Shown piece by piece: positions 8,518 through 28,419 of a stretch of 64,000 nucleotides of DNA. The stretch spans positions 3,555-67,554 of the forward strand of contig MFNE01000047.1 in the NCBI GenBank assembly GCA_001783695.1, read 5' to 3'. The notes under the pieces were generated by a model. That model did no database searches and was not told the origin of the DNA. It worked only from the letters and a program-made list of their open reading frames with translations. Source of the stretch: Candidatus Lambdaproteobacteria bacterium RIFOXYD2_FULL_50_16. Its GTDB lineage: Bacteria > SAR324 > XYD2-FULL-50-16. The translations under genes and the position numbers were made by a program. Each line of letters opens with the position of its first letter. Position 1 is the stretch's first letter.

Positions 8518-8526
8518 TCAGGAGCA

Positions 8527-11500
8527 ATGATAATGACCAAAGGCATAAACCGCAGAGACTTCTTCAAGGTCGCCGCCGTAAGTGGCGCTGCGGCCGCGGT
8601 GGCCGGGTGTGGAACTGACCCGGTCGAAGATATCATCCCAATGCTGGTCCCGCCCTCTGAGTACAATCCCGGCGTGACCATCTTTTTTGCTAGTACCTGC
8701 CACGAATGCTCGGCAGCCTGCGGTGTAGTCCTTAGGACTCGCGAAGGTCGAGCGATTAAAGCAGATGGCAACCCCAAGCACCCCTTAAACAAAGGGAGTA
8801 TTTGCGCTATGGGTCAGGCGAGCATGCAGGCTATGTATAGCCCTAGTCGCTCCAAAGGCCCTAATAAAGGTGGCGCAGCCGTAACTTGGGACGCCGGGCT
8901 CACGGAGCTGGCTGATAAAATGAAAGCGGCCTCTAAGGTGCTTTACATTGGACGGGCCCACTCGGGTAGTATCAATACGTTGATCAATGATGTCCTGGCT
9001 GGAGCCGGGGGTGGCACCAAGTTGGAATTCGACATGATGCCCACCAGTTCGCTGCGCAAAGGAAACGAGATCGCCTTTGGTACGAGCGAGATTCCAGACT
9101 ACGCCATCTCTAAAGCAAAAACCCTGATTAGCTTCGGGGCAGACTTCATGGAGTCTTGGCTAAACAACCAAGCCAACACCCGCGAGTTTACTAAGATGCA
9201 TGCCTTCGCTAACGGCGAGAAAGGCAAGTATATCCATGTAGCACCACACATGACCCAGACTGGCACCAACGCCGATCGGTGGGTTGCGGTTAAGCCCGGA
9301 CAAGAAGCATTGGTCGCCCTAGCGGTTGCCCATGCGCTCCTGCCCAATTCGGCTTTAAGCGGAGACGGGGGCTTGAAGTCTTATTTAGACAACTACAGCA
9401 TCGAAAAAGTATCGGCTCTGACTGGGGTGTCTAAAAAGATGCTTGAAGAGTTGGCCGCTGATTTTGACAAAAAAGGCGAAAGCCTAGCCATAGCGGGTGG
9501 TACCGCTTCGCAAACGGGCGAGTCAACCAAGCTACAGGTGGCGGTTAATCTCCTCAACGCAGTTGCTGGCAACATCGGCAAAACCGTGTTGTTTGGGGCG
9601 AATCAGCAACTAGGGGGTGACTCTGCTGATCAAATTGTGGCTGCTCTTAATAAGGCAGCTGCTGGTGAGTATCAGGTGGTGATTGTAGAAAACGCCAACT
9701 TGGTTTACGCCCTGCCCAATACTGCCGGAGTAGCAGAAACCCTTAAAAAGGTTGGTTACTTGGTTAGCTTATCAACCGAGGCGGATGAGACCAGCAGCTT
9801 AGCATCGATACATTTGCCCACTAGCCACGCAGTGGAATCTTGGGGTGACGCCAACCCCCGCACTGGGATTCATAACCTTCAGCAACCGGCCATGGCCAAG
9901 TTGCCCGGATACGATACCCAAAGCCTAGGTGACCTGTTTTTGAGGTTAGGCCAAAAGCTGGGTGCCCCCGGTACGGAAGCAGCCGATTATCAAGCATACA
10001 TTAAAGCAGTTTGGGCAAAAAACCACAAAGACTGGGGGGGCGCCGGGGCCTTTGATGCTTTCTGGAAGTCTTCTTTGCAAAACGGTGGACACTTCACCGA
10101 TTACGAAGCCAAAGGAGCCAGCCTACAAGCTGCCGCGTATAGCAACGCCCAAGCCCCTGGCGAAGGGGCAAAAGGCTTGACTTTGATTGCGGTCAACAGC
10201 CCTCTGCACAACGCTTCGGGTCAAAACGGCAACCGCACTTGGATGTTAGAGATTCCGCACCCAGTGACCCAATTAGTTTGGGATTCTTGGGTCGAAATCA
10301 ATCCAGACACGGCGGTTGAGTTAGGGATTAATTCAGGCGATTTGGTTGAAATTACTACCGCCACCGGCACCCAAAAAGTGGGCGCTTGGGTTTATTATGG
10401 GATTGCTCCAGGCGTAGTGGCTATGCCCACTGGCTTAGGACGAAGTTTACCCTTCCCGACTTATATTTCGACCCGTGGAAAATCGATTTTATTGCCTCAT
10501 GTGGAGATGGCTTCGGATGTTAAACTGGCTGATATTTCAGTTGGCGAAAACGTCACCGACCTTTTTGCTTACAAGACCGACGCCCAGTCTGGCGATTTGG
10601 TGATGCAAGCGGCGGTTTCTAGCCTTAAATCGACAGGTACTGCCGCCTATCAGGTGACCCCGGAAGGGACCCATACCTCGCATGACGCTGCCGCGCTAAC
10701 CGGGAAATATACCAAGGCCAATATGGGCGACCATAGCCAAAAAGGCCGAGGTTTTGTTCAGGTTGCTTCGGTAGAAGAAATGAACGGACATGGCCAAGGC
10801 CATGGGGAAGGTCATCACCTACGGCACCGGCATTATACGGTTGATAACCGCATTAGTAATACTGATTTCTATCAGGAACGCGCTGCGGATATCGCTTACC
10901 ACACCGAATGGAGTGGAGCCGAAAAACCGGTATATTACGAGAATTACAAGTGGGAAATGGCGATTGATTTGGATCGCTGCACCGGTTGTTCTGCCTGCGT
11001 AGTTGCTTGTTATGCTGAAAACAACATCGCTGTGGTGGGTAAAGAGCGGGTGTCTAAAGGTCGTGAAATGGCCTGGATTCGTATGACTCGCTACATGGAC
11101 CATAACGAAGAAACCGGTGCCTTAGAGACCTACTACACCCCCAACATGTGTGGCCAGTGTGCCAACGCTGGGTGTGAGCCGGTATGTCCGGTCTATGCGA
11201 CCTATCATAACGACGAAGGGATCAACGCGATGATTTATAACCGCTGCGTTGGGACTAGGTATTGTCTGAATAACTGTATTTATAAGCAGCGCCGATTCAA
11301 CTGGAGGACCTATGAGTTCCCAGCGCCGCTTCATATGCAGCTCAACCCGTCTATGACGGTCCGGGAAAAAGGGGTGATGGAGAAGTGTAACTTCTGCTAC
11401 TCCCGGATTCGCGAGGGGAAGGACAATGCAAAAGACGAAGGACGATTGGTAATTGACGGCGAGATCAAAACCGCCTGCCAAGAGACTTGTGCGGCCGACG

Positions 11501-11652
11501 CGATTAGCTTCGGGAACATTAAGGACGAAAAGGCGAAGGTGACTAAGATCAAAACCACCACCAACCGGGGATACCGGCACTTGGAGGAGGTGAACTTTAA
11601 ACCGGCCGTTACCTATCTGAAAAAGATCAACCACGACAACCGCAAAGCATAG
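8527..11652 (+). CDS. actB: Alternative Complex III subunit ActB (fused molybdopterin-oxidoreductase-like B1 and 4Fe-4S B2 domains), Tat signal
   Basis: 1041 aa with a twin-arginine leader (RRDFFKVAAVSGAAAAVAGC). The N-terminus is a molybdopterin-oxidoreductase fold. The C-terminal ~250 aa carries multiple Cys clusters (CTGCSACVVAC, CGQCANAGCEPVCP, CNNC) as in PsrB/NrfC. Confidence 0.85.
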   Translation: MIMTKGINRRDFFKVAAVSGAAAAVAGCGTDPVEDIIPMLVPPSEYNPGVTIFFASTCHECSAACGVVLRTREGRAIKADGNPKHPLNKGSICAMGQASMQAMYSPSRSKGPNKGGAAVTWDAGLTELADKMKAASKVLYIGRAHSGSINTLINDVLAGAGGGTKLEFDMMPTSSLRKGNEIAFGTSEIPDYAISKAKTLISFGADFMESWLNNQANTREFTKMHAFANGEKGKYIHVAPHMTQTGTNADRWVAVKPGQEALVALAVAHALLPNSALSGDGGLKSYLDNYSIEKVSALTGVSKKMLEELAADFDKKGESLAIAGGTASQTGESTKLQVAVNLLNAVAGNIGKTVLFGANQQLGGDSADQIVAALNKAAAGEYQVVIVENANLVYALPNTAGVAETLKKVGYLVSLSTEADETSSLASIHLPTSHAVESWGDANPRTGIHNLQQPAMAKLPGYDTQSLGDLFLRLGQKLGAPGTEAADYQAYIKAVWAKNHKDWGGAGAFDAFWKSSLQNGGHFTDYEAKGASLQAAAYSNAQAPGEGAKGLTLIAVNSPLHNASGQNGNRTWMLEIPHPVTQLVWDSWVEINPDTAVELGINSGDLVEITTATGTQKVGAWVYYGIAPGVVAMPTGLGRSLPFPTYISTRGKSILLPHVEMASDVKLADISVGENVTDLFAYKTDAQSGDLVMQAAVSSLKSTGTAAYQVTPEGTHTSHDAAALTGKYTKANMGDHSQKGRGFVQVASVEEMNGHGQGHGEGHHLRHRHYTVDNRISNTDFYQERAADIAYHTEWSGAEKPVYYENYKWEMAIDLDRCTGCSACVVACYAENNIAVVGKERVSKGREMAWIRMTRYMDHNEETGALETYYTPNMCGQCANAGCEPVCPVYATYHNDEGINAMIYNRCVGTRYCLNNCIYKQRRFNWRTYEFPAPLHMQLNPSMTVREKGVMEKCNFCYSRIREGKDNAKDEGRLVIDGEIKTACQETCAADAISFGNIKDEKAKVTKIKTTTNRGYRHLEEVNFKPAVTYLKKINHDNRKA

Positions 11653-11660
11653 GAGATGCC

Positions 11661-12986
11661 GTGAGCAACGTTACTTACGCCAGCATCAACGATCACATCC
11701 TTCACTCGTTGAAGCCGCCGGGAAAATCCTGGTTCGCCAGCATGGCCGTCATCCTCACCATGTTGGGGATGGGGATCTTTGCCTTTGGCTATCAAATTCG
11801 CCACGGTTTAGAGGGCAGCGGGATTAACAACCCCATTGGTTGGGGTGTGTACATCACCAACTTCGTATTTTGGGTAGGTATTGCCCACGCGGGCACCTTG
11901 ATCTCGGCAGTTCTCTTTTTGGTCCGGGCTCCTTTTAGGACCTCGATCTACCGGGCCGCTGAGGCAATGACCGTGTTTGCGGTAATGACCGCGGGGCTTT
12001 TCCCATTAATCCACATTGGTCGGGTTTGGAACTTTTACTTCCTAATCCCTTATCCGAACCAACGGCTTTTATGGGTTAACTTCAAATCACCCCTGTTATG
12101 GGACGTATTTGCGGTTAACACCTATATGTCGGTGTCGATCCTGTTTTTCTTGGTGGGCTTAGTGCCGGACTTTGCCGTGATTCGCGACGAATCCAAAGGG
12201 CTCAAACGGATATTCTACGGAATTGTTTCCCTAGGCTTTAGGGGCACCAACCATGAATGGGTCCACTACATGCGGGCTTATCTCTTGTTTGCCGCCATCG
12301 CTACGCCCTTGGTGTTCTCGGTCCACTCGATTGTATCCTGGGACTTCGCGATGTCTTCGATCCCTGGTTGGCACACCACCATCTTCCCGCCCTACTTCGT
12401 GGCGGGCGCGATCTTCTCTGGTTGCGCGATGGTGCTAACCTTGATGATCCCCTTGCGGGCGATCTTCCCTGGGTTTAAAGACCTGATGCCCATGAAGGAC
12501 TTGGAGGCTATGGCCAAGATGATCCTCTTCACTGGCTTCGTGGTCACCTACGCTTACTCGATTGAGTTCTTTATCGCCTACTACTCAGGGGCCCGCTACG
12601 AGCGCGCCCTCTTCTGGTTCCGGCCTTTTGGTGAACTCAAGGTGTTTTTCTTCCTAATGGTCTTCTGTAACTGCGTGGCACCGCTGCCTTTGTGGATGAA
12701 GTCGATCAGGACCAACATCCCCGCTCTTTGGGTGATCTCGATCTTTATAAACATCGGGATGTGGATGGAACGATACAACATCGTTGTTACCTCGCTGGCT
12801 CACGATTTCGACCCTTACGCCTGGGGCACTTACACCTTCGAGTGGGTGGAAGTCTGGATAACCATCGGTAGTTTCGGTTGGTTCTTTATGTGGTTCTTTA
12901 TCTTCGTTAAGATCATGCCTTCAATGGCCGTGGCGGAGTTAAAAGAGGCCCTGGTTCCCCCAATGAGGAGTGCACATCATGAGTAA
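11661..12986 (+). CDS. actC: Alternative Complex III subunit ActC (NrfD/PsrC-like polytopic membrane subunit)
   Basis: 441 aa and highly hydrophobic with multiple TM helices, placed directly after actB. Confidence 0.8.
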   Translation: MSNVTYASINDHILHSLKPPGKSWFASMAVILTMLGMGIFAFGYQIRHGLEGSGINNPIGWGVYITNFVFWVGIAHAGTLISAVLFLVRAPFRTSIYRAAEAMTVFAVMTAGLFPLIHIGRVWNFYFLIPYPNQRLLWVNFKSPLLWDVFAVNTYMSVSILFFLVGLVPDFAVIRDESKGLKRIFYGIVSLGFRGTNHEWVHYMRAYLLFAAIATPLVFSVHSIVSWDFAMSSIPGWHTTIFPPYFVAGAIFSGCAMVLTLMIPLRAIFPGFKDLMPMKDLEAMAKMILFTGFVVTYAYSIEFFIAYYSGARYERALFWFRPFGELKVFFFLMVFCNCVAPLPLWMKSIRTNIPALWVISIFINIGMWMERYNIVVTSLAHDFDPYAWGTYTFEWVEVWITIGSFGWFFMWFFIFVKIMPSMAVAELKEALVPPMRSAHHE

Positions 12987-13509
12987 GCAATTCACCGGCG
13001 TCTGGGCCGCATACGAATACCTGGACGACTTTTGTGGGGCAGTACGCGAGCTTAGAGGCTCTGGGTTCCAACGGTTAACCACCTTGGCCCCTTGCCCTCG
13101 CCACGAGATTGACCATGCTTTGGGCAACCCCCAGAGCCGGGTTCCTTTCTTTACCTTGGCAGGGATGTTTACCGGATTTACCTTGGCCTTTACGATTATG
13201 ACCTTTATGTCCCTAGAGTGGATCATTCCGGTCTCGGGTAAGCCGATTGTTTCTTACCCGATCATGGGGCCGGTACTGTTCGAGCTTTCGGTTTTGTTCG
13301 CCGTCTGGTTCACCGTGTTTGGGATGGTTGGATTGATTTTAAACGACCTGCGCAAATACGTGTTCCCCTCTAGCAAAGCCTGGAAAAAATACCGCCGTTT
13401 CACGAGGGACCGGTTTGGGGTAATCGTTCCCTGCACCCAACACGACTTAGAGAAGGTGGAAAGCATTTTGAATAAATATCAGGCAGAGGAGGTCAACCGT
13501 GAAGCTTAA
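12970..13509 (+). CDS. actD: Alternative Complex III subunit ActD
   Basis: 179 aa with two TM helices. Its position and size match ActD (DUF3341). Confidence 0.6.
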   Translation: MHIMSKQFTGVWAAYEYLDDFCGAVRELRGSGFQRLTTLAPCPRHEIDHALGNPQSRVPFFTLAGMFTGFTLAFTIMTFMSLEWIIPVSGKPIVSYPIMGPVLFELSVLFAVWFTVFGMVGLILNDLRKYVFPSSKAWKKYRRFTRDRFGVIVPCTQHDLEKVESILNKYQAEEVNREA

Positions 13510-14053
13510 GGCAGGCATCTTAATTGGCTTGATGGTACTGGTTGGGGCTAACCTTGGTTTTGCCAAGTCATCCCTTTGGATCGCAGTTACCGACTTGTAC
13601 GACCAAAAGAGCATTAAACCGCAAGAAGCGGGCAGCATGACCCAGTTTACGGTGGGTACGGTTACTACCGATGGGAAATTGTTTGAATCGACCGAGCAAA
13701 ATTTCGATTGGATCACCAATGAGATGGATCCGGCTTTAACAACCCGTAACCCGGTTGCCGCCAGCCCAGAATCCTTGGCGAATGGTGAAAACAAGTTTTA
13801 CACTTACTGCGCTGTTTGCCATACCGACAATAGCCAGACCAGCCCAGCCGGTTTGGCGAATTCGAAGGTGAACGAAAAAGGTATGCTCGCCCCGGCAATG
13901 TTGCTGATGACTCCCGGTTTTTCGGATGGGTACATCTACAGCAAAATCAAGTACGGCGGAGCGATTATGCCCGTCTTGGGCTACGCGACCACCGACAAAG
14001 ATCGTTGGGATATTGTTAATTTCATTCGCGCAAAATTGGAGACGCAACCATGA
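13499..14053 (+). CDS. actE: Alternative Complex III subunit ActE (monoheme cytochrome c)
   Basis: Signal peptide and a single CAVCH heme motif, with downstream Met as a likely axial ligand. Confidence 0.7.
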   Translation: MKLKAGILIGLMVLVGANLGFAKSSLWIAVTDLYDQKSIKPQEAGSMTQFTVGTVTTDGKLFESTEQNFDWITNEMDPALTTRNPVAASPESLANGENKFYTYCAVCHTDNSQTSPAGLANSKVNEKGMLAPAMLLMTPGFSDGYIYSKIKYGGAIMPVLGYATTDKDRWDIVNFIRAKLETQP

Positions 14054-15345
14054 CCAGAAATGAAGAGATGAAGGCCGTCTTAGAATCGACGACCTTCAAG
14101 CTTAGCGGGGGCCTTCGGGGCTTGTTTGTGCTCTTTGTGGCCATCGGCTTGGTAGGCTTCATTGTGGGGGCCTCTGGTTCTCATCCCCATTTGGCCTGGC
14201 AGGCGCTTTTGACCAACACAGTCTATTTTGGCGGTATTGCCTTTGGTGGATTGATGTTTTCGGTTATTTGGCATATTACCGACGCTAATTGGGGCCGCCC
14301 CTATAAAAGGTTTTCTGAAGCCTTGGGGGCTTTTGCTCCGATCGCGGGTCTGCTTTATTTAGTGTTGTTTTTTGGGGCTCACCACTTCTTCCAGTGGATG
14401 GACCATGACAAAGTGATTCACTCGAAAGCAGCTTGGTTGAACTTCCCGTTTTTTGTGGAGCGCAACGTTATCCTTTATGTGGTTGTGCTGATCTTGGCCT
14501 TTATCTACGTTAAAAACAGCTTGCGCCCTGATATTGGACTGGCAAAGAAGTTAAACAACTTCTCGAACGGTTTTGCAGACAAGTTTGTTTCAGGATACGG
14601 CGACCAAGATGCCGAGCAAAAGGCTTGTAAGAAGAAAAACGACCGAATTGCGGTATTACTGGCAATGGGTTGGGGTTTGCTTTCAAGCTTAATCGCCTTC
14701 GATTGGATTATGTCGATCGACCAGGAATGGTTCTCAACGATGTTTGGAGTGCAGTATCTGGCCGCTAGCTTGATTACCGGCATGGCCTGTCTAAACCTAA
14801 TCTCTGGGGTCGCCTGGAAGAAACTGGGTTTGGACGGTTATATTAATACCAGTCGCCACCACGACACAGGCAAATTTATTTTCGCCTTCTGCCTTCTGTT
14901 CACCTATATGGTGTTCAGTCAGGTTTTGGTAATTTGGTATGGCAACATCCCTGAAGAAACCCCTTACTTGCTATTGCGGATGCATAGCCACGAGTGGGGC
15001 TGGTTGTTTTGGGTGTTGGCAGTGATGATTTTCTTGGTCCCTTTCTTCGGACTCATGCCTCGGACGGTTTGTAATCTACCCTGGGCTTCGAGGATCTTTG
15101 CTATCGACGTGTTGGTGGCTATCTGGCTGGAGAAGTACTTCTTGATCGCTCCTTCGATCCAAGAAAACATGGCCGATGCTGCTGGAGTAGGCGCTCATCT
15201 GGCTGGGTTCCAGTACAACATCTTCGATTTCTCGATTACTTTAGGAGTCTTGGGCGCGTTTTTGCTGAGTGTCTTTTGGTTCCTTTCGAAGGTTCCTGCG
15301 GTTCCGATTTCGGACCCTCGATTTTATAAAGAAGGGCATCATTAG
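14050..15345 (+). CDS. actF: Alternative Complex III subunit ActF (second NrfD-like membrane subunit)
   Basis: 431 aa polytopic membrane protein and the last gene of the operon. It overlaps actE by 4 bp. Confidence 0.75.
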   Translation: MTRNEEMKAVLESTTFKLSGGLRGLFVLFVAIGLVGFIVGASGSHPHLAWQALLTNTVYFGGIAFGGLMFSVIWHITDANWGRPYKRFSEALGAFAPIAGLLYLVLFFGAHHFFQWMDHDKVIHSKAAWLNFPFFVERNVILYVVVLILAFIYVKNSLRPDIGLAKKLNNFSNGFADKFVSGYGDQDAEQKACKKKNDRIAVLLAMGWGLLSSLIAFDWIMSIDQEWFSTMFGVQYLAASLITGMACLNLISGVAWKKLGLDGYINTSRHHDTGKFIFAFCLLFTYMVFSQVLVIWYGNIPEETPYLLLRMHSHEWGWLFWVLAVMIFLVPFFGLMPRTVCNLPWASRIFAIDVLVAIWLEKYFLIAPSIQENMADAAGVGAHLAGFQYNIFDFSITLGVLGAFLLSVFWFLSKVPAVPISDPRFYKEGHH

Positions 15346-18650: not shown

Positions 18651-20858
18651 ATGGCACCTATGGAAGCGAAGATTCGCAAACAGATTGAAAAAAAACTGGC
18701 TAGCCCGCGCAAGGCCCTCCAGGCTTCCTTGATCGAAGCAGACCTAAGGGAATGTAAGCTGACAAATCTAACGGATATTATGTTGCCATTTGATGAGCTG
18801 ACCGGCGTTTTTGGGGCTCATCCTGAATTAAGTGAGTTTGGCAAAGCCCTGGAGTTTTGCAACGACCTTTTGGGGCAAATTGCGACCGAACATATCAGCC
18901 ATTATACCGGTCTTTCCTACGTCTTTACGGTTTACGAGTTAATGTCAGATCAACTGGACCTGTTTTTGAAAGGGGACACCAACCTAGACCGGTTTCATTT
19001 GTTTTTAGAAAAGGTTTCCCAGGCCTTTTTGGGGGTGGAAAATGTCAAAGTCGTATTGGCCTCCTCCAGTCAAGAGGTCATCCAGGACATGCCTCCGCAA
19101 GACCTGATTGACGACGGTACCTTCTCGGACTTTATTAACGAAGTGACCGATGGGTTGGAAACGGTTGAAGAAAACATTTTAGAGATGGAGCAGGACCCCA
19201 GCCAGCTTAGTTTGATCGACCTGCTTTTTAGGGTGATGCACACCATTAAGGGCACCGCTGGTTTTATGGGGATGCCTACCATTTCGAAAGTGGCTCACAA
19301 AACCGAAGATGTTTTAGGCGAAATCAGAGATGGCAAACGCGGGCTGGTGCCTAATGTTTTTGATCTGATGTTCAAGTCAGTCGATACCTTAAAAAACTTG
19401 ATAATTCAATTGACCAGCTTGGTGCAAGGCACTGAGGTTAAACCGGTTAATATTGGCAATTTTTTCCGTGCGTTAGACGTGGTTTATGGGTTGGCTGAAC
19501 CAGACCCTAATATAGAACAGCCCAAAGCCCAATCTCCCTTGTCTAAAGAGGAAGAAACCAATGCCGCTGCCATGCTGGCCGCGATGGAAGAGGCGGGGGA
19601 GCAACCTGGACCGGGGGCTACCAAGGACGAGCCTACCTTGAGCGACGTGGCTAAAAAGGGAGACAGCGGGAAAGGCCCCACCAAGATTCAAGACATGTTA
19701 AAGGTACCCGCTGAGCGGCTCGATGAGCTTTCGAATCTAGTGGGCGAGATGGTTGTGGCCCTGTCGCTATTAACCCAGAATCCAATCATGGCCGAATTAA
19801 CCGACCGCAACGTCAACAGCCAATTGGACCACCTGGACAAAATTACCGAATCTTTGCGTGACAAAGTGTTAGGGATTCGAATGTTCCCGATTGGCACTGT
19901 TTTTTCCAAGTTAAGCCGTCAAGTGCGTGACCTATCCCAAAAGTCGGGCAAAAAGATTGATTTGCAGCTTAAAGGGGTGGATACGCTGGTGGACAAAAGT
20001 ATTATCGATAACATCTACGCACCCTTGATGCATTTGGTGCGTAACAGCATCGATCACGGTATTGAACCCCCAGGCGAACGAGGCGACAAAAATGAGGTGG
20101 GAGAAGTGGAAATCAAGGCGCAGCATCTGGGCGACGCGATTGAAATCGCCATCTCTGATGACGGCAAAGGGCTCGATAAAGAGCGGATTTTAGAAAAGGC
20201 TATTGAGCGAGGGTTGGTTAAAAACAAAGAAAGCCTGACCGAAAAGGAGATTTTTGGATTTATCTTTATGCCCGGTTTTTCCACTGCCAAACAGGTGACC
20301 GACATCTCTGGAAGAGGGGTGGGGATGGATGTGGTGAGAAAAACTATCGAAAGTTTGCGCGGCAAGATTGAGACCGAATCGACGCCCGGTAAAGGGACCA
20401 AGTTTATTTTAAAAATGCCGCTGACCACCTCGATTATCGAAGGGCTGGTGGTGGCGGTGGGAGGCAACCGATTTATTATGCCGATCTTGGATGTATTGCA
20501 GACCATTACCCCCGAAAGAGAAGACCTCAAAGGGATCCAGGGCCGAGAAAATGAGTTTTTCCTGTTGGCGGGCGAGATGATCCCGATAGTTCGGCTGTAC
20601 GAGGTTTACCAACTGGAACCGGATGTGACCGATCCAGGGCAAGCGGTTTTGGTGGTCGTAAATTCAGCGGGTAAAAAATATGGGATTATGGTTGATGAGT
20701 TGCTCCACCGCCAGCAGATCGTTATTCAACCCCTAGGTGAACGGTTTAAGCGCCTTAAGGGGGTCAGCGGGGGGACTATTTTAGGTGATGGGCGGGTCGG
20801 ACTGATTTTAGACCCGGTAAGTTTGGTTCAAAAACAACCTATTCAGGAGGAAGTGTAA
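18651..20858 (+). CDS. cheA: chemotaxis histidine kinase CheA
   Basis: Hpt domain (HTIKGTAGFMGM), dimerisation and HATPase domains, and a C-terminal CheW-like domain. 735 aa with an extra ~160 aa N-terminal region. Confidence 0.9.
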   Translation: MAPMEAKIRKQIEKKLASPRKALQASLIEADLRECKLTNLTDIMLPFDELTGVFGAHPELSEFGKALEFCNDLLGQIATEHISHYTGLSYVFTVYELMSDQLDLFLKGDTNLDRFHLFLEKVSQAFLGVENVKVVLASSSQEVIQDMPPQDLIDDGTFSDFINEVTDGLETVEENILEMEQDPSQLSLIDLLFRVMHTIKGTAGFMGMPTISKVAHKTEDVLGEIRDGKRGLVPNVFDLMFKSVDTLKNLIIQLTSLVQGTEVKPVNIGNFFRALDVVYGLAEPDPNIEQPKAQSPLSKEEETNAAAMLAAMEEAGEQPGPGATKDEPTLSDVAKKGDSGKGPTKIQDMLKVPAERLDELSNLVGEMVVALSLLTQNPIMAELTDRNVNSQLDHLDKITESLRDKVLGIRMFPIGTVFSKLSRQVRDLSQKSGKKIDLQLKGVDTLVDKSIIDNIYAPLMHLVRNSIDHGIEPPGERGDKNEVGEVEIKAQHLGDAIEIAISDDGKGLDKERILEKAIERGLVKNKESLTEKEIFGFIFMPGFSTAKQVTDISGRGVGMDVVRKTIESLRGKIETESTPGKGTKFILKMPLTTSIIEGLVVAVGGNRFIMPILDVLQTITPEREDLKGIQGRENEFFLLAGEMIPIVRLYEVYQLEPDVTDPGQAVLVVVNSAGKKYGIMVDELLHRQQIVIQPLGERFKRLKGVSGGTILGDGRVGLILDPVSLVQKQPIQEEV

Positions 20859-20893
20859 TCCTGAGCAAACCTTAAATCAACGCGGTAGAGGAG

Positions 20894-21385
20894 GTGGATA
20901 TGGGTGAAAAATCTAAAAAAATGTTCGATCAATCTGGGGGCAAGCTGCTCACCTTTCTTATTGGCGAACAGGAATATGGGATTCAGATTCTCGAGGCGCG
21001 AGAGGTGGTCGGGATGATGTCCATCGAGCCCGTACCTCAGACCCCTTCTTTTATGAAAGGGGTGATTAACTTGCGCGGCAGCATCATACCCGTGATTGAT
21101 CTAAGAACCAAGTTTGGAATGGAAAAAAAGGAAACCACTGCCGAGTCCTGTATTGTTAAAGTTGATATCCAGGGCCGCTCGACTGGTTGCATTGTGGATT
21201 TTTTAGTGGGTGTGGTGACCATTGAAGCCAAGGATTTTGAGGAAAACCTCGACCTTGGGGCTAACATTCATACCGAGTTTATCTTAGGTATGGCCAAGCT
21301 GGAAAAACGGGTGATTATCATTTTAGATATGGAGCGGGTGCTGAGTAATGATGAACTGCTTCAATTGCATCAATCTGCCTCGTAG
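20894..21385 (+). CDS. cheW: chemotaxis coupling protein CheW
   Basis: 163 aa single CheW domain. Confidence 0.85.
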   Translation: MDMGEKSKKMFDQSGGKLLTFLIGEQEYGIQILEAREVVGMMSIEPVPQTPSFMKGVINLRGSIIPVIDLRTKFGMEKKETTAESCIVKVDIQGRSTGCIVDFLVGVVTIEAKDFEENLDLGANIHTEFILGMAKLEKRVIIILDMERVLSNDELLQLHQSAS

Positions 21386-21419
21386 CCATAGCAACCTTTA
21401 ACTATAATCGAAAGACACG

Positions 21420-23636
21420 ATGCCTAAAGGGATATTTCGTTACCCCTTTTACCTGTTTTTGTGCCTGATGGCGCTGCCTTTATTGGTAACCGGATGGGTT
21501 GCGGATCGCCAACTAAGTAGCTTATTTAACCAGTTTGCTTTCCAGCTCTTGGACCAACGGATCGACCACGATCTAGCTCGGCTCAAGCCTGGGCCAGAGG
21601 GGCTTGAAGCCTGGGTGGTTTATATGGAGCCAGAGCTGACGGCGCTGTGGCTAGATCAAGACGGGCAAATTCGGGCAAGTAACCTAGGCAGTAAACCACT
21701 GGACCCCCAATTAGAGCGGGTACGTCAGGCTTTAGTTTCGGGAGCCAGTCGTCCCTTAGATGTGGGGCTTTTTAGCGTTGAGCGGCCATTGGACCGATGG
21801 GGAATGCAGGGGCATCATCTTTTGTATTTTCAGAAGGTGAGCCCGTTCGAGGCTTGGTTAGCACCCTTGCGCCAACTGTACTGGTTGATGGTAGGTTTAG
21901 GTGGATTGATGGCGGCGAGTTTGGCCTTGTATTATTTTAACCGAGTTCAAAAACCAATTGCGCTGATTTTAAAGAAAAATGCCCAACTAAACAATGGCCA
22001 AGGGGTTTTAGAAGGGCAGATTGATCCTAGTTTAATTGCCAATACCGACCTGGGCGAAATCATGGTTTCGCGCAATCATGTTTTGGAGACAATATTCTTA
22101 GAATGTACAAGAAACACAAATATCCTCAATAGTATATACGATGGTATTTTTGTGTTTGGTCCCGACAAACGGGTCAACCGGATCAATTTTGCGGCTTCAA
22201 TGATGTTGCAATATTCTGAAACCGAATTAAAAGGGATGACTGCCGAAGAGTTAACCCGCGGCTCCGAACAAGAGTGGGTAAAATATTGGTGGAATAACTA
22301 CCAGTTTAACAGCCAACACCCCTCTTTTGAAGCCCAGTTAACCGCCAAGACAGGAGCCTTTGTTCCGGTATGGTGTTCGGCCAATTTGATGATCAATCCC
22401 ACCGGGCAACTTGAAGGGATGTTGTTGGTTTGTCGGGATATTAGTATTCGCAAAGCGTTGGCTGAAAAGGTAAACAAGCTTTCGTTGGTTACCGAGCAAA
22501 GTCCGGCGGCGGTGATGCTGCTGGATTTGATGACCCAAGTTGAATACGTCAACCCGTCTTTTGAAAAGATGACTGGCTATACCTCTGCCGAGGTGGTTGG
22601 GCGGCCTTTAGCCCAATTAAAAATCGCGACGATAACCCAGAATAAGCGCCTCGCTTTGGAATCCGCTATTTCTTCCCGCGCCACTTGGCAGGGAGAATGC
22701 CAGACGATCCGCAAAAACGGACAGGTTTATTGGGAGCGAATTTTGATGGCTCCGATTTTAGGGGGTAACCAGGAGGTGATGGGTTTTTGTTTGATCCGTG
22801 AAGAGATAACCCAGGCGAAAGAATTAGAGGTCGCCCTGGTCGAGGCCAACAAGGGGTTGGAGCAAAAGGTCGAGCGCCGGGTTGCAGAACTAAAGGCGGC
22901 GACCTTGGAATTAGAGCGGGCAAATGAAGAATTAAAGGGTTTGGATCGTCTTAAAGATGAGTTTATTGCCAACGTATCCCATGAACTGCGAACCCCACTT
23001 GCTTCGGTGATGGGTTACGCCGAAGGAATGCTTGAATGCCAAATGGAACGCGAGGTGGAAGAGCGTTTCTTAAAGGTGATATTGTCCGAGTCCGAGCGAT
23101 TGCTCAGATTAATTAATGAAGTATTGGAGCTTTCCACAATCGAGTTAGGAAATCAGGAATTAAAGGTGGGTTCAGTAGATCTGGATCAAACGGTAGAACA
23201 ATGTTGTCAGATATTGGAAAAGTTGGCCGCTGAAAATGAAGTCACTTTTTCTAAAACGGAATCAGCGATTGTTTTTTTAGGGGATCATGACCGTTTCCAA
23301 CAGCTTTTGATTAATCTGATGGCCAACGCCCTAAAATTTGCTCCAGCGAATTCGGTTGTGGAGATTAAGGTTGGTCCTGATAATCCAGGATACTTCCGCC
23401 TGGAGGTGCGCGATTATGGAGAAGGGATACCAATGGATCAATTAGAGTCCATCTTTAACAGATTCCAACAAGCTAAGAATCAAAAAACCGGGAAAAAGGG
23501 CACCGGTTTGGGCTTGACCTTGGCTCGTAAAATCGTTGAGGCTCACCAAGGACGGATTTGGGCGGAAAATGCGTTGCCAGGGGCGAGGTTTGTTTGCGTA
23601 TTGCCTGTCAATTTTGTGGAGAAAGCGGATGTTTGA
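21420..23636 (+). CDS. membrane sensor histidine kinase with periplasmic loop and PAS domains (HisKA plus HATPase), embedded in the che cluster
   Basis: Two N-terminal TM helices flank a ~130-aa loop. PAS-like regions follow a coiled coil. It carries an H-box VSHELRTPL, and N/G1/G2 boxes (GTGLGL). Confidence 0.8.
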   Translation: MPKGIFRYPFYLFLCLMALPLLVTGWVADRQLSSLFNQFAFQLLDQRIDHDLARLKPGPEGLEAWVVYMEPELTALWLDQDGQIRASNLGSKPLDPQLERVRQALVSGASRPLDVGLFSVERPLDRWGMQGHHLLYFQKVSPFEAWLAPLRQLYWLMVGLGGLMAASLALYYFNRVQKPIALILKKNAQLNNGQGVLEGQIDPSLIANTDLGEIMVSRNHVLETIFLECTRNTNILNSIYDGIFVFGPDKRVNRINFAASMMLQYSETELKGMTAEELTRGSEQEWVKYWWNNYQFNSQHPSFEAQLTAKTGAFVPVWCSANLMINPTGQLEGMLLVCRDISIRKALAEKVNKLSLVTEQSPAAVMLLDLMTQVEYVNPSFEKMTGYTSAEVVGRPLAQLKIATITQNKRLALESAISSRATWQGECQTIRKNGQVYWERILMAPILGGNQEVMGFCLIREEITQAKELEVALVEANKGLEQKVERRVAELKAATLELERANEELKGLDRLKDEFIANVSHELRTPLASVMGYAEGMLECQMEREVEERFLKVILSESERLLRLINEVLELSTIELGNQELKVGSVDLDQTVEQCCQILEKLAAENEVTFSKTESAIVFLGDHDRFQQLLINLMANALKFAPANSVVEIKVGPDNPGYFRLEVRDYGEGIPMDQLESIFNRFQQAKNQKTGKKGTGLGLTLARKIVEAHQGRIWAENALPGARFVCVLPVNFVEKADV

Positions 23637-24450
23637 GGGGCTCAACCTTTCGGATGAAGAGTTTCAACTTTATCAAAAGTTGATCTACGATTCGGTGGGA
23701 ATCAATTTTACAGATAACAAAAAGCAATTACTTGTATCTCGTTTACGCAAGCGATTGGAGATGACCGGCCTTTCTAGTTATGCAGCTTACCGTAGGTATG
23801 TCACCGATCCCAACAACGCCGAAGAATTTGTGCAGATGATTAACGCCATCTCCACCAATAAGACCGACTTTTTTAGGGAGCCTCAACATTTCGATTTTCT
23901 TAAACATTATGTTTACCCAGATTTAAGCAAAAAGAAGCAAGTTCGGATTTGGAGCGCGGCCAGCAGTTCCGGTGAGGAACTCTATACCTTGGGGATCACG
24001 GTGATGGAAAACTTCCCTAATCTGGTGAATCAAGATATTAAAATATTAGGGACCGACATCTCGACCAAGGTTTTAGGCGAGGCGGAACAAGGCGTTTACA
24101 GTGAAGAATCGGTGGGGCCCATCCCCGGCCTAATGTTGCGCAAGTATTTTTTAAAGGGGCAAGGCCGCTGGGAAGGGCATTATTTGGTCAAAGATGAGTT
24201 AAAAAAACTGATCCATTTTAGGCGACTCAACCTAATGCAACCCTTTCCGTTAAGTGCCGCGTTTGACTTTATCTTTTGTCGAAACGTGATGATTTACTTC
24301 GACAAACCCACCAGAGAAGATCTGGTAGCCCGGTTAGCAGCGCAACTGCTACCTGGCGGGTATCTCTTTATCGGCAATGCCGAAAGCTTAAGTGGGTTGA
24401 AAACGACCCTTAAATACGTACAACCCGCGATCTATCGCAAAGTTTACTAA
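23629..24450 (+). CDS. cheR: chemotaxis protein methyltransferase CheR
   Basis: CheR N-terminal helical domain plus SAM-dependent methyltransferase domain. The start was set at ATG 23629 (MFEGLNLSDEEF), which overlaps the kinase stop by 8 bp. The ORF-track start at 23536 is an upstream in-frame artefact. Confidence 0.85.
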   Translation: MFEGLNLSDEEFQLYQKLIYDSVGINFTDNKKQLLVSRLRKRLEMTGLSSYAAYRRYVTDPNNAEEFVQMINAISTNKTDFFREPQHFDFLKHYVYPDLSKKKQVRIWSAASSSGEELYTLGITVMENFPNLVNQDIKILGTDISTKVLGEAEQGVYSEESVGPIPGLMLRKYFLKGQGRWEGHYLVKDELKKLIHFRRLNLMQPFPLSAAFDFIFCRNVMIYFDKPTREDLVARLAAQLLPGGYLFIGNAESLSGLKTTLKYVQPAIYRKVY

Positions 24451-24458
24451 AAGGGACC

Positions 24459-24827
24459 ATGGCGATACAAATATTAGTAGTGGACGACGAGAAAACCATT
24501 CGCGATTTAGTCGCGTTTCGCCTTGAATACCACGGGCACAAAGTGGTGACCGCCGAAAACGGAAAAGACGCTTTAGCCAAACTAAAACAAACCGTGCCCG
24601 ATCTAGTGGTACTAGACGTGATGATGCCGGATATGACCGGCATTGAGGTCTGTAAAATTATCAAAAGTGAACCCAAATGGGCCGCAATCAAGGTGCTTCT
24701 TTTGACCGCCAAAAGCCGCAAGCAAGATGAGGAGGTGGGGCTGGCCGCAGGAGCGGATGGCTTTATGGCCAAGCCCTTTAGAGCGAATCTGCTTTTAGAA
24801 AAAATCGAGGAATTAGTGAATGGTTGA
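24459..24827 (+). CDS. CheY-like single-domain response regulator
   Basis: 122 aa REC domain (ILVVDDE...D...K). Confidence 0.8.
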   Translation: MAIQILVVDDEKTIRDLVAFRLEYHGHKVVTAENGKDALAKLKQTVPDLVVLDVMMPDMTGIEVCKIIKSEPKWAAIKVLLLTAKSRKQDEEVGLAAGADGFMAKPFRANLLLEKIEELVNG

Positions 24828-25353
24828 GGTCAACCCCTTTGGGCCTACACGAAAAAATTATCATCTCCAGCCAGGGGAGGTTTTTGTCACTACCGAAGAC
24901 ATGATGATCACCACGGTTTTAGGATCCTGCGTCGCGGTCTGCCTCTTTGACCCAGAGCGCCTGGTTGCAGGGATGAACCATGTGATGCTGCCCCGCATGG
25001 CCCCTGGCCAAAGCCCCAGCACCCGGTTTGGGAATGTCGCCAGTTTTGTGTTATTGGAGATGATGCGTGAACACCGCTGTAGCCCCCAAAACCTCCAGGT
25101 CCACGTTTTTGGCGGGGCCAACGGTTTGGGACGGCTTTCCGCAGATCCCGAAAAATCGACCATGCAGGTCGGGCGGAGCAATCTGGAAGTGACCTTTAAC
25201 GTCTTAAAAAAACTAAATATCAAGATCGACGGTCAAGATGTGGGTGGTGACACGGGCAGGAGGGTCCAGATGGACTGCCGAACCGGGGAAATTCGCATGG
25301 AGTTTTTACGTCGTTTTGATTTTACCCACGAACTACAACCCGCCAAAGTCTAA
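24820..25353 (+). CDS. cheD: chemoreceptor glutamine deamidase CheD
   Basis: 177 aa with MITTVLGSCVAVCLFDP, carrying the CheD catalytic Cys region. Confidence 0.75.
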   Translation: MVEVNPFGPTRKNYHLQPGEVFVTTEDMMITTVLGSCVAVCLFDPERLVAGMNHVMLPRMAPGQSPSTRFGNVASFVLLEMMREHRCSPQNLQVHVFGGANGLGRLSADPEKSTMQVGRSNLEVTFNVLKKLNIKIDGQDVGGDTGRRVQMDCRTGEIRMEFLRRFDFTHELQPAKV

Positions 25354-25360
25354 TAACGGC

Positions 25361-26419
25361 ATGGCTAAACCTACTCGCTTGCTAATTGTCGATGATTCCG
25401 CCCTAGTCCGCCGGGTTTTGGAGGATCGTATATCTAGAGATCCCCGAATCGAAGTAGTAGGAACCGCGAAAGACGCCTACGAAGCCCGGGATATGATCGT
25501 GCACTTGAAGCCCGATGTGATAACCTTGGACCTAGAGATGCCTCGAATGCATGGACTCGATTTTATCGAAGTGCTGATGAAGCATTGGCCTTTGCCGATT
25601 ATTGTGGTCAGTGCCCATATTGAAAAGGACGCTCAACTCGCTCTTAAAGCCATCGAGGCGGGGGCGGTGGAGGTTTTTCCGCGGCCTGCTTCCTTGGATG
25701 AAGAGGGGTTTAAAGAGCTTTGTAATCTGGTGGTGGGGGCCAAAAAAATCAAGGCTGGCAAACCTGGCCCGACCTCTGGCCAAGCTAATCCCAAGTTGGG
25801 GAGTTCCACTCTGCTGAATCGGGGTACGGTTGATGGGACTCTAAATTCAAAGGTCATCGTTATTGGTGCCTCTACTGGCGGCACCGAGGCTATTAAAGAG
25901 GTCTTGACTCGCCTACCCGGCGGTCTGCCAGGGATTGTGATGGTTCAGCATATGCCTGCTGGTTTTACCACCAGCTTTGCCGAAAGGCTAGATATGCTTT
26001 GCCCACAATTAGAGGTTAGAGAAGCCAAAGACGGTGACCGGGTTATTCCTGGCCAAGCATTGTTGGCACCCGGTAGCAAACATATGTATCTCCGAAAAGC
26101 CACCGGGCCTCAAGGGGGCTATTTTGTGGAGGTCAAAGACGGTGAGCCTGTCAACCGCCACAAGCCTTCGGTGGATGTGATTTATGATTCTGCGGCAGAA
26201 GCGGCGGGGAGTAAAGCGGTTGGTGTGATTTTAACGGGTATGGGCGCCGATGGAGCCAAGGGCCTGCTCAAGCTCCGCCAAACCGGGGCCCACACCATCG
26301 CCCAAGACGAGGCGACCTCCGTGGTTTACGGCATGCCCCGCGAGGCGACGATTAACGGCGGTGCTGAACGCTCCTTACCCATCGAAAAAATCGCCCAAGG
26401 TATCGTCGATTTTTTGTAA
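25361..26419 (+). CDS. cheB: chemotaxis protein-glutamate methylesterase CheB (REC plus methylesterase)
   Basis: Start at MAKPTRLLIVDDS. N-terminal REC domain and C-terminal CheB methylesterase (GASTGGTEA...HMP). Confidence 0.85.
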   Translation: MAKPTRLLIVDDSALVRRVLEDRISRDPRIEVVGTAKDAYEARDMIVHLKPDVITLDLEMPRMHGLDFIEVLMKHWPLPIIVVSAHIEKDAQLALKAIEAGAVEVFPRPASLDEEGFKELCNLVVGAKKIKAGKPGPTSGQANPKLGSSTLLNRGTVDGTLNSKVIVIGASTGGTEAIKEVLTRLPGGLPGIVMVQHMPAGFTTSFAERLDMLCPQLEVREAKDGDRVIPGQALLAPGSKHMYLRKATGPQGGYFVEVKDGEPVNRHKPSVDVIYDSAAEAAGSKAVGVILTGMGADGAKGLLKLRQTGAHTIAQDEATSVVYGMPREATINGGAERSLPIEKIAQGIVDFL

Positions 26420-26424
26420 GCTAC

Positions 26425-27504
26425 CTAACCTAGGCTAAGCTTGAGGACCTTGTTGTCGGGCGAGAGGGTATAAACGAAGCCTAGGGCGTCAACTGCTTTT
26501 CTAAGCTGGGTCCAGCGGTCATCTTGGGCTTTTTGGGCGGCTTGGTCGAGGCGACCTTGCCGGTCTTCGCCCTTTCTAATAGCCGTCAAAAAGGAATTGA
26601 GGTCGATCCCTAATTGGGAGAAATATTCGCCGTTTTTTTTCTCTACCTGGGTCGAGAGCTTCTTTAAATCGGCGGTGAAAAAGCTCTTGGGCCGCACGTG
26701 CCGAGCGTTTTCGTCGGTGATCATTTTTTGCACCTGGGCGCTGACCGATTCGGAGATAACCACACTAAAGGTGATCAAGATCTTGATCTTGGTGGGATTG
26801 GCGAAGGGGATTTCGTTGCAAATCAGGTTGGCTAGGTAGCGGATTGATTTGTTTTTGCGCAGTTTTTTTAAATAAGGTGAATATTCGTTTTCCGTTTTTT
26901 TAAAGCCAAAGGAAAAACGGCGTTTGCGACTGGCGAACCACAAATCGTACAATCGTTTGCGCTCGGGCTCGTTAGGCGTGATCACGATGGCCCCGCGGTT
27001 CCCACGTTCCATCTGGAACCCTAACGCTTTTGTTCCCTTGGCCAGCCTGGCCAACTGAGCGTCCACAAAAGCGGCGTTTTGGGCCAACTGGGGTGCTAAA
27101 ATCAACGAATAATAATGATTTAAAAAATTGCTTAAGTCCGCCCCTAGTTTCGCCACCATCTTAGGCTCTTGCTCGATCAGGTTGGCGAGGTATTTTAGAT
27201 GTTGCTCCTCTATCTGGGATTTGTAATTACGAGACGGCCCAATTACTTGGGCGACTTCGCAGAAAAATAGCAGGTAAAACATACTTTTAAATTTGCCAGC
27301 CAACTCCGAGGGACGCTTGGCCAGCTCCGCTTCGACGACCCTTTTTCCTTTAAATCCTTTGCCATGGGTACGGCTGACGGCCTCAATCAGCAATTGATCC
27401 ACCAGCTTTTTAACCTCTTCTAAAAGAAAATAAAGGTCCCCAGTGAAGATGTTTTCTTGGGCAAATTTTAAGTAAACATTTTGTTTTTTAAAGGGATTTA
27501 GCAT
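26425..27504 (-). CDS. hypothetical basic protein (359 aa), no domain recognised
   Basis: Long ORF with good coding character. It is K/R-rich and predicted helical. Confidence 0.4.
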   Translation of the reverse strand: MLNPFKKQNVYLKFAQENIFTGDLYFLLEEVKKLVDQLLIEAVSRTHGKGFKGKRVVEAELAKRPSELAGKFKSMFYLLFFCEVAQVIGPSRNYKSQIEEQHLKYLANLIEQEPKMVAKLGADLSNFLNHYYSLILAPQLAQNAAFVDAQLARLAKGTKALGFQMERGNRGAIVITPNEPERKRLYDLWFASRKRRFSFGFKKTENEYSPYLKKLRKNKSIRYLANLICNEIPFANPTKIKILITFSVVISESVSAQVQKMITDENARHVRPKSFFTADLKKLSTQVEKKNGEYFSQLGIDLNSFLTAIRKGEDRQGRLDQAAQKAQDDRWTQLRKAVDALGFVYTLSPDNKVLKLSLG

Positions 27505-27564: not shown

Positions 27565-28419
27565 TCAGGCCCACTTTTGCGCCTGTTTGCGGTAGGAACG
27601 GCTCACTTTAAAGGGTTGCGCGATCCCCGGTAGCCAAACTTGGGTCTCCTTGCCCACTTCGGCCTGTAAAACCTTGGAGGGGTTGACGAGCGCGGAGCGA
27701 CTGATCTGCACTAAATGCCCCTCGGCGTGCGCGGCGAGGTTTTTTAAGCTGCCATGGGTCATTACTTGCTGGACCGCGTTTTGAGCCTCGTACCAGATCT
27801 GGCAGTAATGGTCCTCTACCTGAACGGCCAAGAGGCACTCTAGGGGGACCTGCACCGGACGGCCCTCGACTTGTAATTCTATGCTAATTTTGGCAAGGGC
27901 TTTGGCTTGGGTAAGCAAGGCGATTTTTTGTAAAGTGCCGGTGGAAACCATCAGCAAATGCACGAGTGCTGAAACGGCGGCCACCTGCAAAGCGATAAGA
28001 CCGGCCATCTTTTGGACGGTTTCGAGGTCGTTAAACAACAGGACCAAGCCGTAGGTAAAGCCGATCCCCGTGATTAAATAGGGCGCTTGGCTGGCGAAGG
28101 ATTTTTCAAAGCGAATCCCCCGGATTTGGTGATGGATCAACCAGCTAAGGCGGTGCCCCAGAAACCCTAACAGACCATACAAGCCCCAATTTAAGATGGG
28201 ACTCCAGGGTTGGTCCGGCTGGGTTTGTACCAGACCTAACACCAAGCAAACCAATAAAGGGATTAGCAGGCTTAAGAGATCAACTTTATAGCGGGTGAAT
28301 TGACCCATCACGAGTTGCACCGGTTGGTTATTCACGAAATTACCTGATCTAAGGACGAAAGGGAAGGCTGGTTTCACGAAAAACCCGGCTACACTCACGA
28401 AAACGGGCTTTCCCGGCAA
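27565..28419 (-). CDS. membrane-anchored LytTR-domain DNA-binding protein
   Basis: N-terminal ~170 aa with 4-5 TM helices. The C-terminal ~100 aa is LytTR-like (beta-rich, HYCQIWYE...LVQISRSALVNPSKV). Confidence 0.55.
   Translation of the reverse strand: MPGKPVFVSVAGFFVKPAFPFVLRSGNFVNNQPVQLVMGQFTRYKVDLLSLLIPLLVCLVLGLVQTQPDQPWSPILNWGLYGLLGFLGHRLSWLIHHQIRGIRFEKSFASQAPYLITGIGFTYGLVLLFNDLETVQKMAGLIALQVAAVSALVHLLMVSTGTLQKIALLTQAKALAKISIELQVEGRPVQVPLECLLAVQVEDHYCQIWYEAQNAVQQVMTHGSLKNLAAHAEGHLVQISRSALVNPSKVLQAEVGKETQVWLPGIAQPFKVSRSYRKQAQKWA

Follow-up and report, generated by a model that had tools for sequence, protein, structure and literature searches.

A chemosensory operon of a Lambdaproteobacteria bacterium with a membrane PAS histidine kinase in the position of the chemoreceptor gene

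What does a chemosensory (Che) operon respond to when it contains a membrane sensor kinase and no gene for a methyl-accepting chemotaxis protein (MCP)? The question is raised by a locus of Candidatus Lambdaproteobacteria bacterium RIFOXYD2_FULL_50_16, which we analyzed within a 64-kb stretch of contig MFNE01000047.1 (hereafter, the window). On balance, and with slightly better than even confidence, we favor the reading that the kinase replaced an in-cluster receptor, that orphan MCPs encoded elsewhere are still used by the pathway, and that the kinase serves as a second input. At positions 18651 to 26419, seven closely spaced genes on the same strand have the order cheA-cheW-kinase-cheR-receiver-cheD-cheB by Pfam assignment:

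18651 to 20858, + strand: cheA, 735 amino acids (aa), or 732 aa if the start is at 18660; Pfam Hpt, H-kinase_dim, HATPase_c, and CheW.
20894 to 21385, + strand: cheW, 163 aa from a GTG start or 161 aa from the ATG at 20900; Pfam CheW (4.7e-37).
21420 to 23636, + strand: membrane sensor histidine kinase, 738 aa; Pfam PAS, HisKA, and HATPase_c.
23629 to 24450, + strand: cheR, 273 aa; Pfam CheR_N and CheR.
24459 to 24827, + strand: stand-alone receiver ("CheY-like"), 122 aa; Pfam Response_reg only.
24820 to 25353, + strand: cheD, 177 aa; Pfam CheD and NCBIfam CheD models.
25361 to 26419, + strand: cheB, 352 aa; Pfam Response_reg and CheB_methylest; NCBIfam CheB at 395 bits (above the cutoff).

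This order and close packing, proposed earlier from the letters of the DNA alone (hereafter, the sequence-only reading), are upheld by the Pfam matches, the gene calls, and the junction lengths. The starts of cheR (ATG at 23629) and cheB (25361) are those of public gene calls on identical contigs. Intergenic gaps measure 35 to 41 nucleotides (nt) between cheA and cheW, 34 nt between cheW and the kinase gene, 8 nt between cheR and the receiver gene, and 7 nt between cheD and cheB, while the receiver gene and cheD overlap by 8 bp. The cheR ATG and the kinase stop codon (TGA, 23634 to 23636), read directly from the sequence, give the 8-bp overlap that had been described for this junction. Because of these narrow gaps and short overlaps, the seven genes likely form one operon, as judged from spacing alone. 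A scan of the operon for promoter and terminator consensus sites found them no more common than in shuffled sequence.

The embedded kinase is annotated, with its exact sequence, as OGG93556.1 in RIFOXYD2_FULL_50_16. It had been described as a two-transmembrane, PAS-containing kinase, which holds for its two hydrophobic segments (TM1, aa 8 to 28; TM2, aa 153 to 173) and its HisKA/HATPase_c core, except that the PAS domains number two. A periplasmic segment (aa 29 to 152) separates TM1 and TM2, and a juxtamembrane linker (aa 174 to 224) conserved among orthologues leads to PAS1 (approximately aa 225 to 345; recognized by Pfam in orthologues), PAS2 (aa 353 to 467), a coiled coil, HisKA (aa 512 to 576), and HATPase_c (aa 621 to 730). 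The linker looked HAMP-like by eye, but a HAMP domain was rejected, as aa 1 to 227 gave no Pfam match even at an E value of ≤1. The candidate phosphoacceptor, His521 (nt 22980 to 22982), lies within the SHELRTP H box, and an alignment of 10 orthologues retains the H, N, G1, F, and G2 boxes of class I HisKA kinases as SHELRTP, NLMANALKF, RDYGEGI, FNRF, and GTGLGL, respectively. Pfam found no Response_reg domain in the window kinase. Among 5.8 billion proteins, only three full-length orthologues were found (47 to 49% identity), all of them in the same operon.

No MCP was detected in the window by tblastn with the Tsr signaling domain as the query, nor among the genes called in the 10 kb past either window end. 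The earlier statement that the cluster lacks an MCP gene is therefore correct across this span, and the possibility, raised at the same time, of a cognate receptor just outside the cluster boundaries is not realized there. The sequence-only reading had also considered that the kinase might itself contain an MCP signaling domain or cryptic signaling or methylation heptads; none were found. Pfam gave no PF00015 match for the kinase, and when the kinase family was compared profile to profile with MCPs (hhalign against an MCP alignment), the probability was <1%, with 100% for a true-MCP positive control. Neither the kinase nor any of the remaining cluster proteins contains the strict methylation consensus [ASTG][ASTG]xx[EQ][EQ]xx[ASTG][ASTG], and the kinase orthologue alignment shows no conserved Glu/Gln pair. 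A receptor C terminus of the form xZxxZ (Z = F, W, or Y) is the criterion for a pentapeptide that tethers CheR or CheB (PMC7390727); no cluster protein and no real open reading frame (ORF) in the available DNA of the clade ends in this way. These motif searches led us to reject the idea that the cluster proteins hide methylation sites or a tethering pentapeptide.

Lack of a receptor gene is not unusual in itself. Che clusters without receptor genes are ordinary, with the receptors scattered in the genome, as for the F6 cluster (PMC7184735). The window locus differs from F6-type clusters in having a sensor kinase in the slot where its relatives have a receptor. These relatives were collected by a genome scan with a CheA alignment, which returned 22 loci, and the window proteins and an MCP probe were compared with each. 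The kinase-type operon is conserved in about 10 genomes (group A; L007, L009 to L016, and L023), all from Lambdaproteobacteria and SAR324 metagenome-assembled genomes (MAGs), with CheA proteins 53 to 69% identical to that of the window. Group A loci have the order cheA-cheW-kinase-cheR-receiver-cheD-cheB and no MCP within 10 kb, and most adjoin lpxK and a hexapeptide-transferase gene. The kinases are only 30 to 49% identical, and the kinase of one subclade has no periplasmic segment; in all group A loci, the kinase gene overlaps or abuts cheR.

A sister clade (group B), which includes SAR324 JCVI-SC AAA005 and strain TL4, has CheA proteins 43 to 47% identical to that of the window and the order cheA-cheW-[1-2 MCPs]-cheR-(cheD)-cheB. 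Here, the one or two MCPs lie exactly between cheW and cheR, so that the sequence-only reading was right to place the sensor kinase in the slot of an MCP. A neighbor-joining tree of CheA supports both groups (bootstraps of 87/100 for group A, 85/100 for group B, and 96/100 for the two together). Because the che cluster of a Paludibaculum outgroup locus also holds an MCP, the in-cluster MCP is likely the ancestral state, and the simplest history would be a single replacement of the in-cluster receptor by the kinase in the group A ancestor.

An in situ swap in which the kinase kept the old MCP sensor half was also considered and rejected. BLASTP of kinase N termini against sister-clade MCPs returned nothing below an E value of 0.26, and the hhalign probability was 0.6%; the kinase N terminus is not derived from a receptor sensor. 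Some group A loci vary the operon layout. In L013 (12973 to 15132) and L014 (12776 to 14941), an additional, divergent cheA lies between cheW and the kinase gene; the product of this cheA (32% identity) has the same N-terminal extension as the window CheA and branches outside groups A and B. In L023, which has no cheW, the kinase gene directly follows cheA (12166 to 12171), and the close relative L011 keeps cheW.

The positional exchange could mean that the kinase replaces the receptor in function as well, either by docking CheW/CheA or as the substrate of CheR, CheB, and CheD, in a pathway that would be independent of MCPs and tuned by methylation. Its place exactly in the MCP slot and its coupling to cheR across the clade accord with this idea, as do the absence of an MCP from the ∼84 kb around the operon and the lack, among the matches listed, of any MCP from the genome of the window organism. 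Yet the kinase family shows no MCP-like hairpin (hhalign, <1%), its orthologues conserve no Glu/Gln pair, and the cluster proteins contain neither the methylation consensus nor an xZxxZ terminus. In addition, relatives with the same operon have orphan MCPs of the matching class, and CheW and CheR are conserved as well as in MCP-containing clusters (both detailed below). We consider functional replacement very improbable. The claim that the kinase took over the receptor's structural role, so that it nucleates or joins the CheA/CheW complex or is tuned by CheR, CheB, and CheD, is less probable still; if true, this would be the first Che-type adaptation machinery working on a classical histidine kinase rather than an MCP.

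Receptors that would suit the operon were found in its relatives. The in-cluster MCPs of group B constitute a distinct class with the hairpin tip ITHQTKMLATNAAIEAARAGEQGKGF (also written QTKMLATNAAIEAARAGE) and the C terminus DDF[KS]EF; the sister-clade tails DFKEF and DFSEF fit xZxxZ. Compared with the 36H receptor Tsr, MCPs of this class have 21 extra residues (three heptads) per arm, located between the tip and the methylation sites, and they are mostly transmembrane proteins. Assembly GCA_032250835.1 has the kinase-type operon L016 on JAVVEA010000002.1 and, on JAVVEA010000001.1, a 571-aa CHASE3-MCP (P0356) with no che gene within 10 kb. The tip of P0356 is identical to that of the group B in-cluster MCPs, its tail is GDFEDF, and its methylation motifs (AASLEQTSAA, SAAMEEMSSQ, and AANAEETAAS) are symmetric around the tip. 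Two more MCPs, P0365 and P0367, belong to the same class and share these features, with the tails DFSDF and DFKDF, respectively. The accessions of P0356, P0365, P0367, and the L016 CheA all fall in the run MDT8445751 to MDT8448385, and from this proximity P0365 and P0367 are probably in the same MAG as P0356.

A second lineage is represented by an orphan MCP contig (L121; ERZ28563820 scaffold_2535) from a Rifle sample in which the window organism is also present. This contig encodes an orthologue of P0365, and that gene has a single in-frame stop in this assembly. The tetranucleotide correlation of L121 is 0.94 to 0.96 with 56%-GC group A loci, equal to that of self-controls, and 0.70 with the window. 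A CheX-like (PF13690) gene and a gene for a 7TMR-DISM hybrid kinase are in its vicinity. As judged from sequence, at least one group A genome encodes matching receptors away from the operon, and two group A lineages probably do so. The sequence-only reading had left a choice between a receptor encoded elsewhere and a Che pathway wired to a two-component output; the first alternative gains from these receptors in relatives with the same operon (P0356 and, by composition, L121).

MCPs of this class also occur in other settings. In another deltaproteobacterial MAG (L118/L119, 10001 to 14418), a same-class MCP is followed in turn by CheW, a 455-aa HATPase-only protein, and a receiver; no recognizable CheA domains are listed for this minimal cluster. 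In L122 (5358 to 12094; 47.5% GC), a same-class dCache MCP directly follows fliR-flhB-flhA-like flagellar export genes, a neighborhood which hints that the MCP class occurs in flagellated bacteria. As the MCP locus of the window organism, L122 was rejected because it comes from another organism (r = 0.83), and so was L125, which has a different MCP class and 58% GC and likewise belongs to another organism. Among the matches listed by the metagenome scan, no locus resembled the window in composition (best r = 0.70), and none of the cluster look-ups for 30 representatives named RIFOXYD2_FULL_50_16.

Several proteins of the operon bear on whether such receptors are its partners. CheR aligns without gaps with Salmonella CheR (1BC5/1AF7) through the beta-subdomain loop KGQGRWEGHY, which is conserved across group A; in the same comparison, Pseudomonas aeruginosa CheR1 shows a 4-residue gap in this loop. 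An insertion in the beta-subdomain loop is a mark of pentapeptide-dependent CheRs. By sequence, both features expected of pentapeptide tethering are present, namely, xZxxZ tails on the receptors and a Salmonella-type beta-subdomain in CheR. CheR is 61 to 78% identical within the clade and has the FCRNV motif, and its S-adenosylmethionine-binding motif, IWSAASSSGEE, is conserved in the alignment to 1BC5. CheW is 55 to 83% identical within the clade and 57 to 71% identical to CheW of the MCP-containing sister clade; the window CheW is 71% identical to that of one MCP-type cluster and is thus closer to it than to some group A members. CheD has the GSCV and HVMLP motifs, and CheB has GASTGG, QHM, and GMGADG.

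CheA consists of P1/Hpt (aa 160 to 253, with His197), P3 (aa 348 to 407), P4 (aa 459 to 592), and P5/CheW-like (aa 597 to 728) domains, with a low-complexity linker and no recognizable P2. Across 17 homologues, His197 and the residues of the N, G1, and G2 boxes do not vary. An additional N-terminal domain (aa 1 to 155; 18651 to 19115) is conserved among the CheA proteins of both groups and the second CheA of L013/L014; neither Pfam nor profile comparison with P1 gave a match for it. Its helical bundle (aa 1 to 137) is predicted to contain five helices (predicted local distance difference test score, 80.6), and the best PDB folds for the model are CheA P1 domains (template modeling score, 0.76 to 0.79; E values of only 0.01 to 0.1). 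There is no His on helix 2. This domain may be a degenerate second P1, judging by the predicted fold.

The kinase may enter the pathway through the receiver encoded two genes downstream. The DD, D, T, and K residues are present in its alignment, and we take these to correspond to CheY D12/D13, D57, T87, and K109. The PhoB and PleD receiver domains of NCBIfam outscore CheY for this protein, and its best PDB match is RR468 (101 bits; Escherichia coli CheY, ∼68 bits). Pfam finds Response_reg only and thus no output domain. Because the closest PDB matches of the kinase core (Thermotoga maritima HK853, 126 bits) and of the receiver (RR468) come from one solved complex, in which they are partners (PDB 3DGE), the two proteins would appear to be a classical two-component pair embedded in a Che operon. 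HK853 and RR468 lie outside any Che operon, and the likeness to the window pair is at the family level. The suggestion of a pathway wired to a two-component output thus gains partial support: the kinase and receiver resemble a classical pair, but the receiver has no output domain, and the sensor domains of the kinase make a role as second input more likely than one as output. The evidence favors the view that the two alternatives of the sequence-only reading, a receptor elsewhere and a two-component connection, are not exclusive and are both partly true.

Alternatively, the kinase and receiver might form a two-component system of their own that shares only its transcription with the che genes, without cross talk, and CheA might signal to CheB and perhaps to a CheY encoded elsewhere. 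The resemblance to the self-sufficient HK853/RR468 pair is compatible with such independence. So is the absence from CheA of a recognizable P2 docking domain, as is the lack of a receiver through which CheA could control the kinase, unlike in the TL4 relative and in Rhodospirillum centenum CheS3. Conversely, the position of the kinase gene between cheW and cheR and the stop/start overlap have been kept despite divergence to 30% identity, which argues for selection on coexpression and stoichiometry. Moreover, the receiver is orthologous to that of L017, an MCP-type Che cluster without any kinase, and was therefore probably a CheA target originally. We hold full independence of the pair to be unlikely.

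The locus L022 of strain TL4 (Deltaproteobacteria bacterium TL4) has the order cheA-cheW-MCP-cheR-[CheD-CheB fusion without a receiver]-[REC-HisKA-HATPase kinase]-receiver, where REC is a receiver domain. CheD-CheB catalytic-domain fusions that lack a receiver domain (381 and 392 aa) are encoded within L022 7446 to 10127 and L027 15253 to 16431, both of strain TL4. A special kinship between the window kinase and the TL4 REC-kinase was rejected, as their cores are 40% identical and unrelated database kinases reach 35 to 43%.

Known systems offer several points of comparison. Che3 of R. centenum (PMC3868531, PMC4436063) likewise has a class I PAS kinase inside a che cluster with cheA, cheW, cheR, cheB, and a stand-alone receiver. 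In that system, CheS3 is phosphorylated by CheA3 on a receiver domain and is itself the sole kinase that phosphorylates CheY3 (PMC3868531). The TL4 arrangement, with a REC-HisKA-HATPase kinase followed by a receiver, follows the same logic as this cascade. CheS3 is an HWE kinase with N-terminal receivers under CheA3 control, whereas the window kinase is a HisKA kinase with a TM-PAS-PAS sensory part and no receiver. CheA3 is a CheA-REC hybrid and its cluster includes MCP3; in contrast, the window CheA has no receiver and its cluster no MCP. Because the window kinase has no receiver, CheA cannot control it as in CheS3, and Che3 of Myxococcus xanthus is the closer analogy. There, the phosphorylation state of a single regulator, CrdA, is set by the kinase CrdS together with CheA3, which belongs to a Che pathway that also comprises MCPs, CheW, CheB, and CheR (PMC3147164). 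With two inputs converging on one receiver, CrdS/CrdA is the best functional analogy, although CrdA is an NtrC-type transcription factor, the M. xanthus pathway has two MCPs and no CheY, and the window receiver has no output domain.

The order cheA-cheW-MCP-cheR-cheD-cheB, which is that of the sister clade, is also found in stage-1/2 F7 systems of gammaproteobacteria, such as P. aeruginosa Che2 and cluster III of Vibrio cholerae (PMC7184735, PMC7534058), where a receptor pentapeptide tethers the cluster's own CheR. F7 receptors, however, are of the 36H class and cytoplasmic (Aer2-like), whereas the receptors described here are longer by three heptads per arm and mostly transmembrane. Membership in F7 is not supported, as the receptors are not 36H. 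What is new here is the clade-wide, positionally exact swap of an in-cluster receptor for a TM-PAS-PAS HisKA kinase, together with natural intermediates.

In the explanation that we favor, the in-cluster chemoreceptor gene or genes would have been replaced by a membrane PAS-PAS HisKA kinase in the ancestor of one SAR324/Lambdaproteobacteria clade, and the pathway would have kept methyl-accepting receptors encoded elsewhere in the genome. CheA and CheW would assemble with these orphan MCPs, which would have the ITHQTKMLATNAAIEAARAGEQGKGF tip, methylation pairs of the canonical Glu/Gln type, and an xFxxF tether at the C terminus. The tether would serve as the docking site of CheR, and the orphan MCPs would be adapted by CheR, CheB, and CheD. 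The kinase, translationally coupled to cheR, would act as a second, receptor-independent input and most likely would form an HK853/RR468-type pair with the receiver. The receiver could then integrate CheA-derived and kinase-derived signals, as in Che3 of M. xanthus and R. centenum. We infer that the window genome also has such orphan MCPs and that the kinase may serve as a phosphodonor of the receiver.

A number of observations weigh against this explanation. For the window organism itself, no MCP was located among the matches listed, and a homologue search with an MCP profile aimed at its MCP was filled by marine SAR324 receptors. The link between P0356 and its operon depends on MAG binning, and that of L121 depends on composition alone, with an in-frame stop in its MCP. 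In the genomes concerned, the orphan MCPs could instead belong to a different Che system. Since generic HisKA kinases and small receivers often have HK853 and RR468 as their top PDB matches, finding both here is weak evidence of a pair. Helix alpha-1 of the receiver is equally conserved in the kinase-less cluster L017; thus, CheA may be the original partner, still active, and the real or only phosphodonor of the receiver. Finally, parts of the Che machinery show signs of erosion in some clade members. In the CheB receiver (25361 to 25720 in the window), the conserved Lys is replaced by Arg in the window (VFPRP) and by Leu in L016. The same receiver in L011 and L023 lacks one Asp of the acidic pair and is two residues shorter behind the phospho-Asp, and L023 has no cheW. 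Control of CheB by phosphorylation may be relaxing in these lineages.

Taken further, this erosion might indicate a decaying Che system that has lost its receptor gene and is being dismantled, with only the kinase-receiver pair remaining important. The replaced Lys in the window and L016, the lost acidic pocket in L011 and L023, the missing cheW of L023, and the in-frame stop in the L121 MCP could all be read in this way. Decay is difficult to reconcile, however, with seven genes that are intact ORFs in nearly all of the ∼10 group A genomes examined. The catalytic residues of CheA are invariant, the catalytic motifs of CheB and CheD are intact, and identities within the clade are 61 to 78% for CheR and up to 83% for CheW. 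We judge decay to be quite improbable.

Two genes on the opposite strand follow the operon:

26425 to 27504, - strand: convergent ORF of 359 aa without a family match (only a sub-threshold Pfam hit, E value of 0.055, and no NCBIfam match).
27565 to 28419, - strand: LytTR membrane protein without a receiver (Pfam LytTR, aa 189 to 283; N-terminal half hydrophobic).

The 359-aa ORF has no match beside the operon in L007, L015, and L016 and is inserted in the window alone. Because it is absent at this position in relatives, it is probably not part of the system. Homologues of the LytTR protein lie directly downstream of cheB in the closest relatives (L007, L015, and L016), which makes it a conserved convergent neighbor with a possible link to the operon. 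Upstream of the operon (7873 to 15345) is an alternative complex III-type gene set, in a neighborhood that is conserved in L007. It encodes a multihaem cytochrome c7-like protein, a molybdopterin/Fe-S subunit (1041 aa), NrfD-like and ActD proteins, cytochrome c, and a 431-aa protein that matches NrfD in a relative. A Mu-like prophage occupies 42104 to 64000 and continues past the window end (L033/L034). Its genes include those for an S24 repressor-like protein, DUF3164, phage lysozyme, a terminase-like protein, Portal_Mu, Phage_cap_E, Mu Gp36, Gp37, and tail tube. Inserted among them are genes for a pentapeptide-repeat protein (44875 to 46680) and a 645-aa ORF without a match (46686 to 48623).

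The window system is an unusual variant of a known signaling system rather than a receptor-less one. It does not overturn current understanding, as Che clusters commonly lack receptor genes and the genomes of relatives encode matching receptors at other sites. For Che pathways with extra kinases, genetically studied cases are few, and little is documented on how two-component modules become grafted onto chemosensory pathways. This clade provides a natural series, from a receptor in the slot (sister clade), through a receptor accompanied by a REC-kinase and a receiver (TL4), to a kinase in place of the receptor (window). The series could serve the study of how phosphate flow is rewired among CheA, a classical kinase, and a shared receiver.

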